A stretch of DNA of 56,151 bases, taken from Chloroflexota bacterium. GTDB taxonomy: Bacteria > Chloroflexota > Limnocylindria > QHBO01. Location: NCBI GenBank assembly GCA_040005815.1, contig JBDTYC010000001.1:1-56151 (forward strand), given 5' to 3'. Shown here piece after piece: positions 49,332-56,151 of this stretch (position 1 is its first letter; every line of letters starts with the position of its first letter). The notes under the pieces were generated by a model that saw only the letters and a program-made list of their open reading frames with translations, was not told the origin of the DNA and made no database searches. The translations under genes and the position numbers were made by a program.

Positions 49332-52300
49332 TTACGACCTCTGACGCTCTTCGGTCGCAAGAGGATAGCGGGCGCTGGTGGCTGACAGCGTGGCCAGCGA
49401 GGTGGCGCCAAGCCGCTCGAAGATCTCCCGCGCCGAGGCCTGGTCGTCGACGTGCCCGGCGAGGAACCAGCGATCGAGGTGGCACAGGGCGAGCCGCAGC
49501 GGCAGATCGAGCTCGCGCCAGGCACCCAGTGCAGCGGCCCATTCCCGCTCCGCGGCGCTGGATGCCGCGTGCTGAGAGGCGACGGCCGCGCGAAGGGTCT
49601 GCCGGGCCGCTTCCGCCGAGCGGCCCCACAACCGGTGGGCATCGAGCGCATCGGATGCCTGTGCCGCGCCGTCCGCATCACCACTCCATGCCGCCAGCCG
49701 ACCCGCCAGGGCGAGCGCCTCGAATTCCTCGAAGCCCTCCGCCCCCTGAGTCGCCGCTCGGGCCAGGTCCAGTGCGTCGGAGAACCTGCCGCCGGACATC
49801 TCGACCATGGCTCGAGCGTGGTTGATGGAGCCAACCGCCTGGAGGTCCAGATCGGCCTCGAGGTCGCCTATCCCCTCGATGGGCCGCGATGCTTCCGCGA
49901 TCCCCCGCATCGCCCGGATGACCGTCTGGGTCACAGCGAAGTCGACCCGGTAGACCGTTGGCAATTCGCCGCTCGATGCGTCGGCGAGCGCCGTCATCGC
50001 CCAGTCCCAGTCGCCGATGTCGACGGCGACCACGCTCGCGACGTCGACCAATTGGAGCGCCATCTCGCGGCTGCCGAGCCGGTTAGCCAGGTCCAGACCC
50101 CTGCGGGCGGTGCGGGATGTCTCCTGCGGATCGTCGCTCACGGTGACCCACGCCAGGTTGTTGAGCGCCCGGAGCTGGAGCCGGCCAAGGTCCGCCGCCT
50201 CGGCATCTTCGATCGACCGGCGCAAAAGCTCGAGCCCCTCTGCGGCTCCCTCCTCGGCGCGAGCGGTGCCCAGCGTGATCCGCGCGTCGATGGCCGTTGC
50301 AATGGCCGCGCCGGTGTCGCCGTTGGCCTCCGCCGCCGCGATGGCGCGCTCGGCCCACTCGACGGCCCGGGGCCGGTCCCCGCGCAGCAGGTGCGCGCGG
50401 GCGAGCTCCGCTGGCAGCTCGGGCGGGACGGAGGCGCCGTCCCCTCCCGCGGTCGCCGCCGTCCAGGCGGCCTCGAGCTCCGCCAGGGCGGTGTCGCTTC
50501 GCTGCGCCTGCAGGAGGAGGCTCGCCAGCTGGGCACGATGACGTGACGCCCCAGCCGCGTCGTGGAGACCCTCCCGCAGCCCGATCGCGTCGCGGAGATG
50601 CTCCTCCGCCCGATCGAAGCGGGCCGCGGAACGGGCGGCCAGCCCGGCCGCCTCTGCCAGATCGGCTCGCGCGGCAGGGAGATCAGTGAGCTTGAGGGCG
50701 TCCTCAAGGTGAGTCAGGGCTCGCACCGGCGCATGGAGCGCCTGGGCTCGATCCGCGGCGAGCTGCAGCGCCTCGCGCGCACGACCCGCGATCGCGGCAT
50801 CCTCGGGCTGCGGCGCGGCGCCGGAGGTGAGCGCCGCGAGCAGGTGCTCGGCGATCGGTTCGGCGAGATCGGGATCGTCGAGCGATTCCAGGTAGGCGAC
50901 CACTTCGAGGTGCCGGGTTCGACGCTGGCGGCGCGACAGGGTGTAGTAAGCGACCTCGCGCACGAGCTCCTGCACGAAGCTCAGCTGCCCGCGACCCGGC
51001 GACCGTGGCTCGTCGTCCATCGACAGGAACTCACGCCGCAGGAGGGCGCGCACGCGTTCCCCGAAGGATCGGGGATCGGCGCCCGACAGCGCGGCCAGCG
51101 ACTCTGGCGCAAAGCGGCGGCCCAGCACGGCGCCGGTCAGGAGGAGCGCCCGATCCGCAGCGGGCAGCGCGTCGATGCGAGCCGCGATGAGCGCATGAAG
51201 GGACTCGGGGATGTCGGCGGTCGACTCGACCCCGCCACTCGGAGAGCGTTCCATCAGCATCCGCGCCATCTCGACCGCATAGAGCGGTACGCCGTCGGCC
51301 CGTCGGCGTACCGTCGTCACGATCTGCGGCGAGAGGCCCGGAGCGAGGGCGGCCAACAGCTCGTCGATCGCTTCGTCCGGCAGGCGGTCGAGGTGCATCG
51401 CGGTGAAATGCGGCAGGCCCGCGCCCCAGGTTGGTCGAGCGTCGAGCAGCTCAGGGCGGCCCAGGGTGAGCACCAGGATGGGACGGTGGCGCGACCAGTC
51501 GGCGACGTAGTCGATGAAGTCGAGGAGGCCCGGATCTGCCCATTGCAGGTCCTCGAAGACGAGCGCGATCGGCCCCTCATCGGCCTGTGCCTCGAAGAAG
51601 CGTCGCCAGGCCGCGAAGAGCTCCTCGCGCTGCGCCTCCTGGCTCCCGCTCGGTTCGAGCAGCGCCAGGAGCCGCGGCTCCATCCATTCGCGCTCCGCGT
51701 CGTCAGGAAGGAGGCGGTTGAGCGTCTCGCCCAGCGCACGTCGCACCAGCTCGACGGGGTCGCTCTCGGCGATCCCGGCGCTGCGGCGCACCACGTCGGC
51801 GAGCGGCGCGAAGGCCGTCCCCTCGCCGTAGGCGGGGGCCCTCCCGACCTGCCATCTCGCTCGCGCGGCAGCGTCCCCGGCTCGCTGCTCCAGCTCCCAG
51901 GCGAGCCTGCTCTTCCCGATCCCGGCGATCCCGATCACCGACACGACGCGCATCCGGTGCTCATCCCCCACGGCAGACAGGAGCTCGAGGAGCGCTCGCA
52001 GCTCAGCATCGCGGCCCACGAACGGCCCGGGATGCCCCGCCCGGGACTCAGTGCCGGGGTGCTGCGCGACGCCCACGGCGCGCCATGCCGCGACCGCGGA
52101 GGCCTTCCCCTTCAGCAGCTGATCGCCAGCCGCCTGGAACTCGATCGCCTGACCGATGACGCGGCGGGTCACGTCATCGACCAGGACCGTGCCTGGCTCC
52201 GCCGCGCTCTGCAGGCGTGACGCGGTGTTCACGAGGTCGCCGGTGACCATCCCCTGTCCGGTGGCGTCGACCGTCACCGCCGCCTCCCCGGTCGTGATGG

Positions 52301-52760
52301 CGGCACGCGCCACGAGGTGTCCGCTGCCGGGGGACGCGATCGTCTCTACCGCGGCGACGACCTCGAGTGCCGTGCGGACTGCGCGCTCTGCGTCGTCCTC
52401 GTGGGCGACCGGCGTCCCCCATACCGCCATCACGGCATCGCCGATAAATTTCTCGAGGGAACCTCCGTAATGCGCGACGGCAGCACGAGCCGCCTCGAAG
52501 TAGAGCGACTGGATCTCGCGCACGTCCTCCGGATCCAGCGACTCCGAGAGGGTCGTGAACCCCACCAGGTCGAGGAAGAGGACAGAGACGAGCCGCCGCT
52601 CCGCGAGGCTCGGGCGCGACTCCGCAACGCCGTGCGCATCATGAACACCGCCTGCGCCGACGGCCGGTGCCTCCGGTCGTGAGGACGTGAGCGCAATCCC
52701 GCAGGTCGGGCAGAAACGGAACTCCGCCGGATAGGTCAGGCCACAGCTGGGGCAGTCCAT
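49332..52760 (-). CDS. zinc-ribbon / class III nucleotide cyclase / P-loop STAND-like NTPase / TPR-like repeat protein (paralog B)
   Basis: Zinc ribbon MDCPSCG..CPTCG. Cyclase motifs VLFLDLVGFT, EKFIGDAVMAVWG and VNTASRLQ. NTPase motifs FVGRDAEL, GIAGIGKSRL and LVFEDLQWAD, followed by a helical repeat tail. TTG at 52823 is an alternative start. Confidence 0.8.
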   Translation of the reverse strand: MDCPSCGLTYPAEFRFCPTCGIALTSSRPEAPAVGAGGVHDAHGVAESRPSLAERRLVSVLFLDLVGFTTLSESLDPEDVREIQSLYFEAARAAVAHYGGSLEKFIGDAVMAVWGTPVAHEDDAERAVRTALEVVAAVETIASPGSGHLVARAAITTGEAAVTVDATGQGMVTGDLVNTASRLQSAAEPGTVLVDDVTRRVIGQAIEFQAAGDQLLKGKASAVAAWRAVGVAQHPGTESRAGHPGPFVGRDAELRALLELLSAVGDEHRMRVVSVIGIAGIGKSRLAWELEQRAGDAAARARWQVGRAPAYGEGTAFAPLADVVRRSAGIAESDPVELVRRALGETLNRLLPDDAEREWMEPRLLALLEPSGSQEAQREELFAAWRRFFEAQADEGPIALVFEDLQWADPGLLDFIDYVADWSRHRPILVLTLGRPELLDARPTWGAGLPHFTAMHLDRLPDEAIDELLAALAPGLSPQIVTTVRRRADGVPLYAVEMARMLMERSPSGGVESTADIPESLHALIAARIDALPAADRALLLTGAVLGRRFAPESLAALSGADPRSFGERVRALLRREFLSMDDEPRSPGRGQLSFVQELVREVAYYTLSRRQRRTRHLEVVAYLESLDDPDLAEPIAEHLLAALTSGAAPQPEDAAIAGRAREALQLAADRAQALHAPVRALTHLEDALKLTDLPAARADLAEAAGLAARSAARFDRAEEHLRDAIGLREGLHDAAGASRHRAQLASLLLQAQRSDTALAELEAAWTAATAGGDGASVPPELPAELARAHLLRGDRPRAVEWAERAIAAAEANGDTGAAIATAIDARITLGTARAEEGAAEGLELLRRSIEDAEAADLGRLQLRALNNLAWVTVSDDPQETSRTARRGLDLANRLGSREMALQLVDVASVVAVDIGDWDWAMTALADASSGELPTVYRVDFAVTQTVIRAMRGIAEASRPIEGIGDLEADLDLQAVGSINHARAMVEMSGGRFSDALDLARAATQGAEGFEEFEALALAGRLAAWSGDADGAAQASDALDAHRLWGRSAEAARQTLRAAVASQHAASSAAEREWAAALGAWRELDLPLRLALCHLDRWFLAGHVDDQASAREIFERLGATSLATLSATSARYPLATEERQRS

Positions 52761-52803
52761 CAGATTGACCGCGATCGGCCAAGCCAGAGCAGGTGCGTCG
52801 CGG

Positions 52804-53160
52804 CTACTCCTCTTCCTTCGCAAGGGTGATGCCGACCGTGCTCGGATTCGTCGAAACGAGCACCATGGCGTAGACGATGAAGCGCTCGAGCGTCTTCTCG
52901 TGGTTCACGATCATCGTCGAGATGCGCGGCGTCTCGTCCTCGTTGATCAGGCGGTACCTGCGGAGAGCCTTGACGGGGTTGTGAATCAGCTCCTCCGCCT
53001 CTCCTTCGGCACCGTCGGGGTCGCCGCTCGGGCTCTTGAAGGCTCGAAAGTGCAGACGGAAGGCGGGAGCCATCACGTCCGGGGTTATGTCCATCCACTC
53101 ACTCGGAACGCCTCGCTCCGCGTACTTCTCCTGCAGCATCGCCCATGCGTCGTCGAACAT
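52804..53160 (-). CDS. hypothetical cytoplasmic protein (118 aa), first gene of the cyclase operon
   Basis: ATG at 53160 is preceded by AAAGGAGGAGG. The composition is protein-like and not R/P/G-biased. No family is recognised. Confidence 0.6.
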   Translation of the reverse strand: MFDDAWAMLQEKYAERGVPSEWMDITPDVMAPAFRLHFRAFKSPSGDPDGAEGEAEELIHNPVKALRRYRLINEDETPRISTMIVNHEKTLERFIVYAMVLVSTNPSTVGITLAKEEE

Positions 53161-53205: not shown

Positions 53206-53335
53206 CCTGATGACCTGCCTAGATGCCACGCGGTGTCGGTCGAATGACAGGCCCGCTGTCCGGGGGCTGCTGGTGGGATCACGATTGCGCGACGAGACTG
53301 TGGGGAAGGCCGGCCACAGGCAGGTCATCATCAGG
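53206..53335. repeat. inverted repeat in the divergent promoter/leader region (12-nt perfect core)
   Basis: CCTGATGACCTGCCT (53206-20) pairs with AGGCAGGTCATCATCAGG (53318-35): 12 perfect bp, a 3-nt bulge, then 3 bp. The right arm runs into the AGGAGG SD of the 53347 gene. Confidence 0.6.
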
Positions 53336-53346
53336 AGGTCGAATCG

Positions 53347-53925
53347 ATGAGCGGATCGCAGGAGGGCGCCGCCCTCAACATGAAGGACGGGCAGGGGATG
53401 CTGGCCATCTCAATCCCGGACCAGGAGACGGAGCAGCGGCTCCGAGCACGCTTGACCGGTAGCAAGGGCGCGGCGCTCGCCGTGCGGATCAGCGCGGCGC
53501 AGCCAGCCGACGTCGAGGGCCACGCCTTTGACCTCGCCTCGGTCTGGGTCAGGCTACAGCTGGAGGGGGACGACACAGAGGGGCACGCCATTCGGGTCCA
53601 GTTCCCGACCGCAGCCGACGCGGACAGGTTCCGTCGCAACGTCCTCGTCGCCGGCATCCTCGCGAGCTCCATCGTCCTCGGCTCGGCAGGCGCGATCGCG
53701 TTGACCAGCCAGCCAGCCGCGAACAGCACGACGGACCAGTCGGAGGTGTTCCAGGCGCCAGCGCAGGGGACCGATGTCCTCACCGGTATCAACCCGGCGA
53801 CCGGCAAGCCCTGGCGCAGCGGATTCCTCGAGCGGTCCGACGGTGAGGTGATGGCACCCGCCGACGCCGCGGCGCCAGTCATGCAGCGACCGGAGGGCCG
53901 TGGCCCGCTGGAGACGGTCGAGTAG
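53347..53925 (+). CDS. hypothetical single-pass membrane protein with duplicated D-[VT]-E-G-H-A motif
   Basis: ATG is preceded by AGGAGG with an 8-nt spacer. TM helix is VLVAGILASSIVLGSAGAIALT. The motifs are DVEGHAF and DTEGHAI. Confidence 0.55.
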   Translation: MSGSQEGAALNMKDGQGMLAISIPDQETEQRLRARLTGSKGAALAVRISAAQPADVEGHAFDLASVWVRLQLEGDDTEGHAIRVQFPTAADADRFRRNVLVAGILASSIVLGSAGAIALTSQPAANSTTDQSEVFQAPAQGTDVLTGINPATGKPWRSGFLERSDGEVMAPADAAAPVMQRPEGRGPLETVE

Positions 53926-54081: not shown

Positions 54082-54519
54082 ATGGATCTCGAGAAGGCCC
54101 TCGCCGCAACCCCACTGCTCGCGGATCTCGATGCGGCAATCATCAAGCGACTCGCGGAGCAGGGCGTTCGTCGCGTCTACCCCGCCGGGGACTGGATCAT
54201 TCGCCAGGATGCGCCGGCATCAGCCCTCTACATCATCCTGCGTGGTCGCGCGCGGGCCGAGAAGGACGGCGAGATGGACCGCACGCCCAGTGAGCTGTAC
54301 CCCGGCGACTTCTTCGGCGAGCTCGCGCTCATCGAGGATCACCCTCGAACTGCGAGCGTCCTCGCCGTCGAGGAGACCGAGTGCATCCTCTTCGTAGCTT
54401 GGGAGTTCACCGCCCTCCTCAAGGAGCACCCCATCATGGCGGTGCCGATCATGAATGCGCTGATCAAGCGCCTCCATCGGCGCGAGCACAAGCCCGACGC
54501 ACCCGCCGCCAGCGCCTAG
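54082..54519 (+). CDS. stand-alone cyclic nucleotide-binding (CNB/cNMP) domain protein
   Basis: Phosphate-binding cassette FGELALIEDHPRTASVLA. At 145 aa it has no output domain. SD is GAGGAGG. Confidence 0.85.
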   Translation: MDLEKALAATPLLADLDAAIIKRLAEQGVRRVYPAGDWIIRQDAPASALYIILRGRARAEKDGEMDRTPSELYPGDFFGELALIEDHPRTASVLAVEETECILFVAWEFTALLKEHPIMAVPIMNALIKRLHRREHKPDAPAASA

Positions 54520-55367
54520 GGGTTCCCGGCCGGTCCCCCCGCGCGCTCTCGCGGGGCGCTACGCGGATTGTCTGCGACTGCCGCAAGCACGGCCTTGACC
54601 TCGAATGGGGTCAGTCCCGGGTGCTTGGACAGGATCAGCGCAACCATGGCGACCACGTGCGGCGCCGCAAAGCTGTTCCCCGTTGCGACGGTGGAGCCAC
54701 CGTCCTTCCAGGCCATCGGCACGTCCACACCCCACGCCCCGAACTCGACCGGCGGCGCCGGATTGTAGTAGAGGCGCAGAGGATCGGGCTCGCCATGCGC
54801 CGCCACGGAGATGACCGATGAGAACAGCGACGGGTAGCTCGCCGCGGGCACGTTGTTCGCCGCGCTGACGAGCACCGTGCGATTGAAATAGGCCCGATCG
54901 ACCAGGTCATGGAAAACCGGGAAGAGGGTCTCGCTCTTCGATGAGAGGCTGAGGTTCAGGACCTCGATCCCCTGGTCGATCGCCCATTCGAGCCCGGCCG
55001 CGAATGCGGCGCTCTTCCCTCGCAGGTCGGCGCCGAGGACCCGGACCGAGACCAGCGCGACCTCGGGAGCCATCTCCACGATGATCCCGCCGCAGGCCGT
55101 GGCGTGCCCGTACAGGTCCTTCCCGTCGTCCGGCACGACCTGCGCGTCGTCGTCGTCGAGCTCCACCGTAACGCTCTCGACGACGCGGCCTGCAAGGCGA
55201 GGGTGGTCGACCTCGAGGCCGCTGTCGATGATCCCAACCCTGATTCCCTTGCCGGTGGAGCCGCCCCATGCCCAGTCCCTGGAGATGCCACGCAGTCGCA
55301 TCCGGCGAGCGAGGCCGGGGATGTTGGCAAAGGGCTCCGACCACGCCGGAAGGTCGAGGCCGCTCAC
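54516..55367 (-). CDS. S8 (subtilisin-like) serine peptidase, minimal catalytic domain with no signal peptide or propeptide
   Basis: Asp in VGIIDSG, His in YGHATACGG, Asn in SAANN and Ser in GNSFAAPHV. The N-terminus is not hydrophobic. Confidence 0.8.
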   Translation of the reverse strand: MSGLDLPAWSEPFANIPGLARRMRLRGISRDWAWGGSTGKGIRVGIIDSGLEVDHPRLAGRVVESVTVELDDDDAQVVPDDGKDLYGHATACGGIIVEMAPEVALVSVRVLGADLRGKSAAFAAGLEWAIDQGIEVLNLSLSSKSETLFPVFHDLVDRAYFNRTVLVSAANNVPAASYPSLFSSVISVAAHGEPDPLRLYYNPAPPVEFGAWGVDVPMAWKDGGSTVATGNSFAAPHVVAMVALILSKHPGLTPFEVKAVLAAVADNPRSAPRERAGGPAGNP

Positions 55368-56143
55368 GCTCTTCGACGCGCTCGCTGTGCGTGTCGAGCG
55401 ACCACTTCGAGGATTTCGCCGATCAGGTTCAGGTCGCGCTCGCCCAGGCCGCGAACCAGCGCGACGTGGTCGACCAGTCGCCAGAAGGGGCCGGCGTCCG
55501 GATCGTCGTCGAGGCCCTCGGTCGCTTTCGAGACCACGGTCTCGACCTGCTCGTCGGTCATCGATTCGTCTGCGAGCTGGCGGAGGACCTCCCGCAGCAG
55601 GCGGACGGTGTCGCGCTGCACGCGCGTGGCGGTGATGGCGGTGGTTGCCTGCCGGGCGAAGATGGCCAGGAGCTCCATGTCCCGCAAGGAGAAGCTCGGA
55701 GACCCGCGCTTGTCCAGGACTTGGAGCACGCCGATCGAGCCGTCGTCGTCGAGTAGCGGCACGGTCGCGATCGACCGCGGAACGTACCCGGTGCGCTCGG
55801 CCGCCTCGAGGTCGAAGCGCGGATCCGAGGTGACGTCGGTCATCGCGAGGCCCTGACCTGTCGAGAAGACGTAACCGGCGATGCCCTCGTTCGGCTTGAC
55901 CACAAGGCCGACCACGCCGGCCCCATGCTCGCCTGCCGCGACGCGAAATTCGAGCCGATCCGGATCGGTCTCGTGCAACGCGATCGAGGAAGCCTCCGCA
56001 TCGAAGAGGCTGACAGTGGCGTCGACGATCGACTGCAGGAGGCGCTGCTCCACATCTCCCTGCAGGGTGCGGGCAACAGAAGACCGCCGCCCCACCGCCC
56101 TGAGGGCGGTGAGTGCGGCGGTCAGATCCTCATCTGCGACCAT
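55364..56143 (-). CDS. GAF domain protein with a C-terminal helical extension
   Basis: LLQSIVDATVSLFDAEASSIAL...GIAGYVFSTGQGLAMTDV...TVPLLDDDGSIGVLQVLDK is GAF-like. Its stop overlaps the S8 start by 4 nt. Confidence 0.75.
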   Translation of the reverse strand: MVADEDLTAALTALRAVGRRSSVARTLQGDVEQRLLQSIVDATVSLFDAEASSIALHETDPDRLEFRVAAGEHGAGVVGLVVKPNEGIAGYVFSTGQGLAMTDVTSDPRFDLEAAERTGYVPRSIATVPLLDDDGSIGVLQVLDKRGSPSFSLRDMELLAIFARQATTAITATRVQRDTVRLLREVLRQLADESMTDEQVETVVSKATEGLDDDPDAGPFWRLVDHVALVRGLGERDLNLIGEILEVVARHAQRARRRA

Positions 56144-56151
56144 GTTGGTCG

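Follow-up and report, generated by a model that had tools for sequence, protein, structure and literature searches.

A GAF-domain protein and a propeptide-less subtilase as the predicted core of a conserved bacterial cassette with DxEGH-repeat proteins and cyclic-nucleotide genes

What holds in check, and what puts to use, a subtilase that carries neither signal peptide nor propeptide and is encoded directly behind a GAF-domain protein? The question is raised by two overlapping genes at the end of contig JBDTYC010000001.1 (assembly GCA_040005815.1, Chloroflexota bacterium, class Limnocylindria). The window analysed here is this entire contig of 56,151 nucleotides (nt), which belongs to a 1.42-Mb assembly that is 66% complete. 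It had been proposed from the DNA letters of the window that the two products form a ligand-gated protease module, with the GAF domain as sensor and the protease of family S8 (hereafter S8) as output; this proposal is referred to below as the original prediction. Comparative evidence supports its core idea and marks it as incomplete. By this evidence, GAF and S8 are one functional unit, conserved in three phyla (Chloroflexota, Actinomycetota and Dormibacterota), and the pair is the core of a real, widespread and undescribed cassette tied to cyclic-nucleotide signalling. The cassette has a third partner, a family of proteins built from a repeated DxEGH motif, which shifts the likely function from that of a generic gated protease to motif-directed processing or degradation.

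The gene pair and its conservation

The pair and its landmarks occupy the following positions of the window, where aa stands for amino acids and ORF for open reading frame:

55364–56143, minus strand: GAF-domain partner protein, 259 aa, ATG start (ORF with Pfam GAF, GAF_2 and GAF_3 matches)
55634–56047, minus strand: GAF domain, aa 33–170, assigned to the cyclic-nucleotide-type clade (Pfam and PDB relatives)
55367–55633, minus strand: C-terminal extension of the GAF protein, aa 171–259 (89 residues), predicted to form four helices, with a basic tail, and outside any Pfam family
55364–55367, minus strand: GTGA, in which the GAF stop TGA and the S8 start GTG overlap by 4 nt
54516–55367, minus strand: minimal S8A subtilase, 283 aa, GTG start (ORF with a Pfam Peptidase_S8 match)
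55329–55349, minus strand: invariant N-terminal P-A-W-x-x-x-F motif of S8 (codon check)
55224–55226, minus strand: codon of catalytic Asp48, in the motif IIDSG
55104–55106, minus strand: codon of catalytic His88, in the motif GHATACGG
54852–54854, minus strand: codon of the oxyanion Asn172, in the motif SAANN
54672–54674, minus strand: codon of catalytic Ser232, in the motif GNSFAAPHV

The plus-strand letters tcac at 55364–55367 read GTGA on the minus strand, which bears out the 4-nt overlap of GAF stop and S8 start described originally, an arrangement typical of translational coupling. It was also the commonest arrangement among the related loci measured (64 of 126), most of the others having the two genes within approximately 25 nt of each other. 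Only 8 nt of the contig (56144–56151) are left 5' of the GAF start codon, and at the far end of the pair a CTAG palindrome at 54516–54519 holds the overlapping stops of S8 and of a convergent gene for a stand-alone protein binding cyclic nucleoside monophosphates (cNMP).

Relatives of the S8 protein are encoded in the genomes of at least 587 species, as counted by pattern scans with a single genome for each species. Gene order was compared in 157 related loci, consisting of 77 scored loci from the 80 closest to the window (all Limnocylindria) and a further 80 chosen for their closeness to an actinobacterial member. In every one of the 77 Limnocylindria loci, the gene immediately upstream of the S8 ortholog encodes a GAF protein and has the same orientation. 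The same holds for 76 of the 80 others, which come from Actinomycetota (among them the cultured Geodermatophilus, Motilibacter and Quadrisphaera), Dormibacterota and other Chloroflexota (Anaerolineae, Dehalococcoidia). With 153 of 157 loci keeping this order, the co-occurrence check suggested together with the original prediction did not return the pair "not conserved elsewhere" that would have spoken against it. As for the four exceptions, one locus (L179) has too little upstream DNA, one (L161) has a 245-aa hydrophobic ORF in that place, and two (L173 and L151) have a gene for a STAND NTPase-WD40 protein. In the last two (L173:900-5834, L151:7-1776), the S8 ortholog is approximately 60% identical to the actinobacterial form and follows a 1337-aa STAND NTPase-WD40 protein; the WD40 proteins of both loci have a common Cys-containing C-terminal tail.

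The two proteins also occur as one. A search with the GAF and S8 proteins joined end to end as the query retrieved many natural single-chain proteins with GAF and Peptidase_S8 domains. In fusions of approximately 540 aa, the helical extension is still present; in those of approximately 405–411 aa it is absent, and the GAF domain is joined almost directly to the P-A-W start of the protease. One 411-aa fusion (P0302), named by NCBI as a multispecies Nocardioides protein, was recovered from the assembly of an isolate and, independently, from two run assemblies. Some of the long fusions from long-read metagenomes could be frameshift artefacts, which is unlikely for the Nocardioides form, and culturable Nocardioides carry a cassette with the same parts. 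Three further proteins (P0279, P0296 and P0340) combine Peptidase_S8 and major facilitator superfamily (MFS) domains in one chain, either as true fusions or as frameshift merges of adjacent genes for S8 and for an MFS transporter with a cNMP-binding domain (MFS-cNMP).

The GAF-S8 unit is single-copy and broadly syntenic within families, and its similarity drops with taxonomic distance; the cassette is largely vertically inherited. In one Limnocylindria genome (L004:6826-13084), the pair, with a 73-aa ORF before it, lies within the usual clpP-clpX neighbourhood, flanked by tig-clpP on one side and clpX on the other.

The protease itself is a bare catalytic domain. Peptidase_S8 (PF00082) covers aa 39–266 of the S8 protein (E 8e-26), no second Pfam domain was found, and the residues follow the Asp-His-Ser order with oxyanion Asn that defines S8A. 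The complete catalytic set claimed originally was verified in its four motifs and their codon positions. In 84 diverse orthologs, D48, H88, N172, S232 and the N-terminal P-A-W-x-x-x-F are 100% conserved and a Cys four residues past the catalytic His is invariant; the fourth position of the N-terminal motif is Ser or Ala in the family (P-A-W-[SA]-x-x-F). Hydropathy analysis of S8 returned no membrane segment or signal peptide, and no hydrophobic stretch in the first 40 residues (best 10-residue Kyte-Doolittle mean 0.41). The protein is too short for an I9 propeptide or a further domain. The signal peptide and I9 propeptide of a classical secreted subtilisin are both lacking, and the original description of an enzyme without signal peptide, propeptide or extra domain holds. 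By these features, S8 is cytoplasmic and its active site is intact.

Mature subtilisin BPN' is the best PDB match of S8 both by sequence (approximately 30% identity) and by fold. For a model of a 77%-identical ortholog, the top fold matches were engineered BPN' variants without the calcium loop, and in our view such a fold would suit a low-calcium cytoplasm. We read PAW as the counterpart of the P-[YW]-G found near the N-terminus of mature subtilisins, in which case S8 would start where secreted subtilisins start after propeptide removal. By profile score, S8 falls outside every named S8 subfamily tried: mycosin (TIGR03921; 112.7 bits vs a cut-off of 278.75, with no membrane segment and no ESX genes nearby), QhpE (NF049966, the second-best NCBIfam match; 102.2 bits vs 165, with no qhp genes in the 157 neighbourhoods) and the PatA/PatG cyanobactin protease (TIGR03895; 25.6 bits vs 421, the window protein having the catalytic domain only).

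The partner protein carries a Pfam GAF match at E 1.4e-16 (PF01590, PF13185 and PF13492 at E 1e-16 to 4e-13) and no other domain. It belongs to the GAF superfamily by these matches, and in an ortholog model the domain has a predicted local distance difference test score (pLDDT) of 93–98. Its nearest PDB relatives are PmGH, an HD-GYP protein of Persephonella (4MCW), CyaB2 of Anabaena (1YKD), the phosphodiesterases PDE5, PDE2 and PDE10, and Lcd1 of Leptospira (5W10), with profile E-values of 2.5e-32 to approximately 1e-20, whereas heme-binding DevS and other GAF domains gave 1e-7 or worse. Several of these nearest structures were solved with cyclic AMP (cAMP) or cyclic GMP (cGMP) bound. Profile comparison thus places the window domain in the cyclic-nucleotide-binding GAF clade (PDE, CyaB2, Lcd1). 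The structure 5W10 is the GAF domain of Lcd1 (PMC11800159), and an entry in the reference list of that paper names Lcd1 as a cAMP-dependent cyclase. The signature motif of cNMP-binding GAF domains, NKFDE (PMC4411481), has its equivalent in D144-K145-x5-F151-x3-D155-M156, which preserves K, F and D and has D in place of N and M in place of E; the last position deviates in PmGH and Lcd1 too.

C-terminal to this domain, the helical extension of some 90 residues noted originally was recovered as 89 residues, which form four helices (pLDDT 70–95) in the AlphaFold2 model of a 68%-identical GAF ortholog. No Pfam family matched the extension, ANTAR remaining without a match even at E up to 5 in seven family members; a GAF-ANTAR RNA-binding regulator was rejected as an identity because there is no ANTAR domain C-terminal to the GAF domain. 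Beyond the GAF domain, the family profile continues in collinear alignment with the linker and the initial HD-GYP helices of PmGH (4MCW residues 167–238), with the HD residues absent, and, as a weak lead, the extension may be the relic of an HD-type domain.

DxEGH proteins, cyclic-nucleotide genes and a palindrome

The proteins encoded next to the pair are small, intrinsically disordered and low in hydrophobic residues. They consist of 2–9 units, usually of 14–16 residues, each made of an acidic run, an invariant D-[TV]-E-G-[HQ] and a short basic variable spacer; the spacers are near-identical within one protein and unrelated between genera. An ORF with at least two DxEGH motifs was found in 107 of the 157 loci, as compared with six single motifs in the 2.79 million six-frame residues of the whole window assembly. 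A DNA pattern for two adjacent units matched 21 of 151 genomes of the class. S8 orthologs are present in 20 of these 21, the one exception looking like a chance match, and the matches lie nearly always on the contig of S8, 0.8–2.2 kb upstream of it. In Nocardioides, a 79-aa ORF with three DVEGH units adjoins the fused GAF-S8 gene. No Pfam or NCBIfam model matched the repeat proteins. The His of the motif is replaced by Gln or Asn in approximately 10% of loci, on which ground a metal site of the amino-terminal copper- and nickel-binding (ATCUN) type, with Glu-Gly-His at a new N-terminus after cleavage, was set aside. Covariation of the EGH/EGQ variant with S8 or GAF residues was likewise discarded, being fully confounded by phylogeny, with all EGQ loci in one clade.

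Other features of the window that bear on the cassette are:

56144–56151, minus strand: contig end, 2 nt past the repeat-gene stop position in the closest relative, L024 (alignment)
53347–53925, plus strand: membrane protein of 192 aa with a single transmembrane pass, whose N-terminal domain carries two DxEGH motifs
53509–53523, plus strand: DVEGH motif of this membrane protein
53572–53586, plus strand: DTEGH motif of this membrane protein
53234–53249, no strand: TGTCGGTCGAATGACA, a copy of the palindrome TGTCG-N6-CGACA in a divergent intergenic region, approximately 98 nt upstream of the DxEGH membrane-protein gene
54082–54519, plus strand: stand-alone cNMP-binding-domain protein, 145 aa, convergent with S8 (Pfam cNMP_binding, E 4.9e-19)
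49332–52823, minus strand: zinc-ribbon/class III cyclase/AAA_16 (STAND-type) NTPase/TPR protein (Pfam)

The window breaks off where a repeat gene would be expected from L024, whose proteins are 93% identical to those of the window. Repeat genes also stand at contig edges in other assemblies (G036 C14:44-148 and C33:5-250; G027 C32:25-87). The alignment of the contig end with L024, together with these other edges, makes it most likely that the gene missing upstream of GAF is a DxEGH-repeat gene that broke the assembly. Because they are repetitive, such genes are probably broken or lost systematically in short-read metagenome-assembled genomes and under-counted in gene catalogues. Neither a repeat gene nor a Crp ortholog was found in the rest of the window's own 66%-complete assembly. 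The 192-aa membrane protein is the only ORF with at least two DxEGH motifs in the whole 1.42-Mb assembly, its orthologs adjoin the GAF-S8 pair in at least nine other genomes, and it is a candidate for a second target of the protease. A strand-like segment follows each of its DxEGH motifs, and its extracytoplasmic tail is rich in Pro, Ala, Thr and Gly, with a conserved GINPATGKPWRSGF.

Clustering of the ORFs called across the 157 loci brought out four kinds of recurrent neighbour. In 92 loci there is an MFS transporter that ends in a cNMP-binding domain; 81 loci have Crp-family regulators and cNMP-binding proteins of the stand-alone type; and 20 loci have class III cyclase-AAA_16-TPR proteins. 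The fourth kind is the small acidic repeat protein. The cNMP-domain profile matches 136 of the 157 loci, and 96 of the 101 with full flanks. Around the pair, the density of cNMP-binding ORFs is 19.8 per 100 kb vs 0.49 in the window's own genome, an enrichment of approximately 40-fold. The stand-alone cNMP-binding gene of the window has its equivalent in the same convergent position in the relatives L003, L024 and L027, and the cyclase/AAA_16/TPR architecture adjoins the pair in L003 and L181 as well as in the 20 clustered loci. In some Actinomycetota (L020:669-3926, L022:1620-2687), an ATP-binding cassette (ABC) exporter with a C-terminal cNMP-binding domain is encoded directly upstream of GAF, with a 4-nt overlap, in place of MFS-cNMP.

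The 16-bp palindrome TGTCG-N6-CGACA was found de novo. It lies upstream of all 28 Limnocylindria repeat genes (28/28), just after the Crp-family gene, and at no more than one mismatch it occurs in 119 of the 157 loci, with sharp positional peaks and a density approximately five times that of the window's genome. The site in the window has counterparts at the equivalent place in L024 and L016. The palindrome probably serves the Crp-family regulator of the cassette as its operator. The canonical Crp site TGTGA-N6-TCACA was rejected as the operator, since it is not enriched (6 matches at no more than one mismatch in 1.33 Mb of loci). A further TGTCG half-site often follows 8–10 nt downstream of the palindrome, and this half-site is unlike the classical TGTGA. 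The pair is thus shown to be co-located with DxEGH genes, cNMP genes and the operator, and the DxEGH-repeat proteins are found almost solely beside it.

A favoured reading and its rivals

The reading that we favour, tentatively and at somewhat less than an even chance, is that of a sensor-gated cytoplasmic protease which cuts DxEGH proteins within the regulon of a Crp-type cNMP regulator. S8, as a cytoplasmic subtilisin without propeptide, would be regulated by the GAF protein, which is made as a separate and usually translationally coupled chain or, in some lineages, is fused to the N-terminus of the protease. The Crp-type regulator would turn on the repeat, GAF and S8 genes. We infer that the GAF module then senses a small ligand and gates the protease; this ligand is perhaps related to cyclic nucleotides and is probably bound otherwise than cAMP is in CyaB2. 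Once active, the protease would recognise the invariant DxEGH motif, its inferred recognition or cleavage site, and dice the repeat proteins into pieces of 14–16 residues; in the window, it would also cut the two-motif membrane protein. The pieces might finally be exported by the linked MFS-cNMP transporter. The DxEGH-repeat protein would be the likeliest substrate of the protease. The ligand-gated module of the original prediction stands in so far as the conserved unit, the fusions, the cNMP-type GAF clade and the enrichment of cNMP genes agree with it; its suggestion of a GAF domain sensing a cyclic nucleotide directly fares less well.

Several observations weigh against this reading. The side chains of CyaB2 GAF-B that contact cAMP are R291, T293, I308, D356 and N359 (PMC4411481), and in the HMMER alignment to 1YKD they align with A51, S53, A70, A115 and T118 of the window protein. 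Three of the five contacts (R291, I308 and D356) are therefore Ala, which leaves the ligand of the GAF domain uncertain, and A51, S53, A115 and T118 are invariant in a 7-sequence alignment of GAF orthologs. Moreover, the TG[YF]xT of aligned cNMP-binding GAF domains is replaced by a family-invariant TGY-x-P at aa 118–122. Judged from these positions, direct cNMP binding by the window domain is doubtful. Hydrophobic residues, which classical subtilisins favour at P1 and P4, are scarce in the repeat proteins. In two Chloroflexota loci (L173 and L151), S8 is paired with the STAND NTPase-WD40 protein and not with GAF. Finally, the cassette is dispensable: 60 of the 151 class genomes, from two of five families, have it, as do 22 of the 301 Actinomycetota sampled.

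Structure modelling yielded no interface. AlphaFold2 was run on ortholog loci in which the GAF and S8 genes naturally share one reading frame, as does the repeat gene in L039; the stops between them were read as Gly, and the alignment comprised 18 paired rows plus unpaired rows. In the GAF-S8 read-through model the domains were confident (mean pLDDT 88.6), and their relative placement was not, with a predicted template modelling score (pTM) of 0.56. In the three-part model, the repeat protein stayed below pLDDT 50 almost throughout (pTM 0.53), with no sign of docking; both outcomes count against the favoured reading. For the GAF-S8 interface, the modelling result is best taken as "no support" and not as "refuted". 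The idea that the GAF extension docks on the protease or inhibits it found no support either in the read-through model or in the Nocardioides-type fusions, which do without the extension.

A bolder version of the favoured reading, unlikely as we see it but worth stating, is that of polyprotein dicing wired to cNMP signalling. The GAF-gated subtilase would cut at DxEGH into many copies of a short unmodified peptide, with the lineage-specific spacer as the message, and MFS-cNMP would export these peptides as signals.

Two rivals keep the same three partners and assign them other roles. In one, which we regard as rather unlikely, the GAF protein is a substrate adaptor whose pocket or helical extension binds the DxEGH motif for S8, and cNMP control is purely transcriptional, through the Crp-type regulator. 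The Ala residues at three CyaB2 contact positions, two of them invariant across the aligned orthologs, would enlarge the pocket for such a role; cNMP sensing is already covered by the CAP-type domains and the conserved operator; and the motif is strictly invariant amid variable surroundings. AlphaFold2, however, docked no repeat onto GAF or S8, and the domain shares the K, F and D of NKFDE with nucleotide binders. To our knowledge, there is also no precedent for a peptide-binding GAF domain in the PDE/CyaB clade. In the other, the DxEGH proteins restrain the protease, as multivalent pseudo-substrate inhibitors or antitoxin-like brakes, and what it actually attacks is to be sought elsewhere, for instance among cAMP-signalling proteins or in bulk protein breakdown under stress or in dormancy. 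An unrestrained cytoplasmic subtilisin without propeptide would need such restraint, the repeat genes adjoin the protease gene and are exclusive to it, and the acidic repeats, low in hydrophobic residues, are unlike classical subtilisin substrates. Yet repeat number (2–9) and spacers vary freely, a pattern more in keeping with a cargo or precursor than with a tight inhibitor, and the motif is also carried by a membrane protein; we consider this reading quite improbable.

The remaining rivals place the protease in a different kind of system. S8 might be the death or arrest effector of a conflict system (anti-phage or kin-discrimination) with interchangeable sensors, namely GAF, STAND-WD40 or the nearby cyclase-STAND-TPR protein. 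The S8 orthologs downstream of the 1337-aa NTPase-WD40 proteins in L173 and L151, the cyclase-AAA_16-TPR genes recurring beside the pair, the hypervariable repeat spacers and a PADLOC "subtilase" match (E 4e-20) could all be cited for it. Against these stand a gene that is single-copy, syntenic within families and similar according to taxonomy, and neighbours that are housekeeping and signalling genes and not defence islands. The PADLOC match reflects generic S8 similarity, and GAF has no PADLOC match; no known anti-phage system in PADLOC-DB v2 was matched in all its components, the hits being the generic "subtilase" for S8 and weak IetS matches. Such an effector is, in our estimate, distinctly improbable. 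Still less probable is a leader peptidase of a ribosomally synthesised and post-translationally modified peptide (RiPP) pathway, like QhpE, LanP or PatA, for which the DxEGH protein would be a multi-core precursor modified before cleavage. The best NCBIfam matches do include QhpE (102 bits) and, weakly, PatA/PatG, and the precursor would be built of repeats with an invariant flank and variable cores. On the other hand, the scores are under every family cut-off, and neighbour clustering of the 157 loci brought out no modifying enzyme as a conserved neighbour, whether a cyclodehydratase, radical SAM, LanM or ATP-grasp enzyme or one of similar kind. Non-classical export, with S8 acting extracellularly and its pairing with GAF reduced to shared transcription, has in its favour nothing beyond the general fact that most subtilases are secreted. 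It is hardly credible for a protein that has no signal peptide or membrane segment and starts where mature subtilisins start, whose calcium-loop-less fold suits a low-calcium cytoplasm, and whose partner is an intracellular sensor domain placed on the same chain in natural fusions.

Comparison with known systems

Literature searches, conflict systems included, returned no published description of a GAF-subtilisin pairing or of a DTEGH/DVEGH motif, and the pairing therefore appears to be as uncharacterised as was supposed originally. If the favoured reading of a sensor-gated, DxEGH-directed protease were confirmed, proteolysis would join the outputs of PDE/CyaB-clade GAF sensors, known as regulators of nucleotide enzymes, and a cytoplasmic subtilisin would have a defined control, with a bearing on how a cell tolerates such an enzyme without a propeptide. 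The DxEGH proteins form an uncatalogued family, and the reading provides a testable hypothesis for a large set of small genes, so far without names, of bacteria that abound in soil and fresh water. Should polyprotein dicing prove true, it would be a bacterial counterpart of Kex2/alpha-factor, and the peptides, made in multiple copies, would form a new class of signals in Actinomycetota, Chloroflexota and Dormibacterota. The culturable Nocardioides carriers make tests feasible by ordinary methods.

Among cytoplasmic subtilisins, the intracellular subtilisin proteases (ISPs) of Bacillus are S8A enzymes without signal peptide or classical I9 prodomain, in which a short N-terminal inhibitory extension with a LIPY/F motif blocks the active site and for which no partner protein is known. 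The window S8 resembles them as a signal-less S8A protease without I9 prodomain, cytoplasmic by prediction. It differs in that its family starts at the equivalent of the mature N-terminus with P-A-W-x-x-x-F, and in having a GAF partner; ISP structures are absent from the best 60 PDB sequence matches of S8. QhpE, the protease that matures quinohemoprotein amine dehydrogenase, is a small subtilisin without signal peptide and has a peptide as its substrate in the cytoplasm. S8 is likewise small and signal-less, but scores below the QhpE cut-off and has no qhp genes nearby.

As regards the repeat proteins, the cassette is comparable to PatE with PatA/PatG and to alpha-factor with Kex2, where a subtilase is likewise encoded with a precursor-like protein of tandem units, each with an invariant flank and a variable segment. 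Unlike the cyanobactin PatA/PatG system, it lacks a macrocyclase or DUF domain as well as any conserved modifying enzyme; it is predicted to be cytoplasmic, has a GAF partner and cNMP wiring, and its cleavage step is a proposal. In SAVED-Lon CalpL, SAVED-CHAT and TPR-CHAT/Craspase, a cytoplasmic protease is released by a sensor domain that reads a nucleotide signal. The arrangement proposed for GAF-S8, a protease restrained by a nucleotide-type sensor, is similar in concept to these second-messenger-activated defence proteases; the protease and sensor folds are different, and the loci have no context of CRISPR or of a cyclic-oligonucleotide-based anti-phage signalling system (CBASS).

The closest likeness is to the enzymes from which the nearest GAF relatives come, namely PDE2, PDE5 and PDE10, the CyaB2 cyclase, the Lcd1 diguanylate cyclase and the HD-GYP protein PmGH: the GAF domain is closely related and, in the fusions, it stands N-terminal to the catalytic domain as it does there. 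Unlike in these GAF-regulated nucleotide enzymes, the GAF module is usually a separate polypeptide and the output is a serine protease. By this analogy, the cassette would work most like a GAF-regulated enzyme that has a protease as its output.

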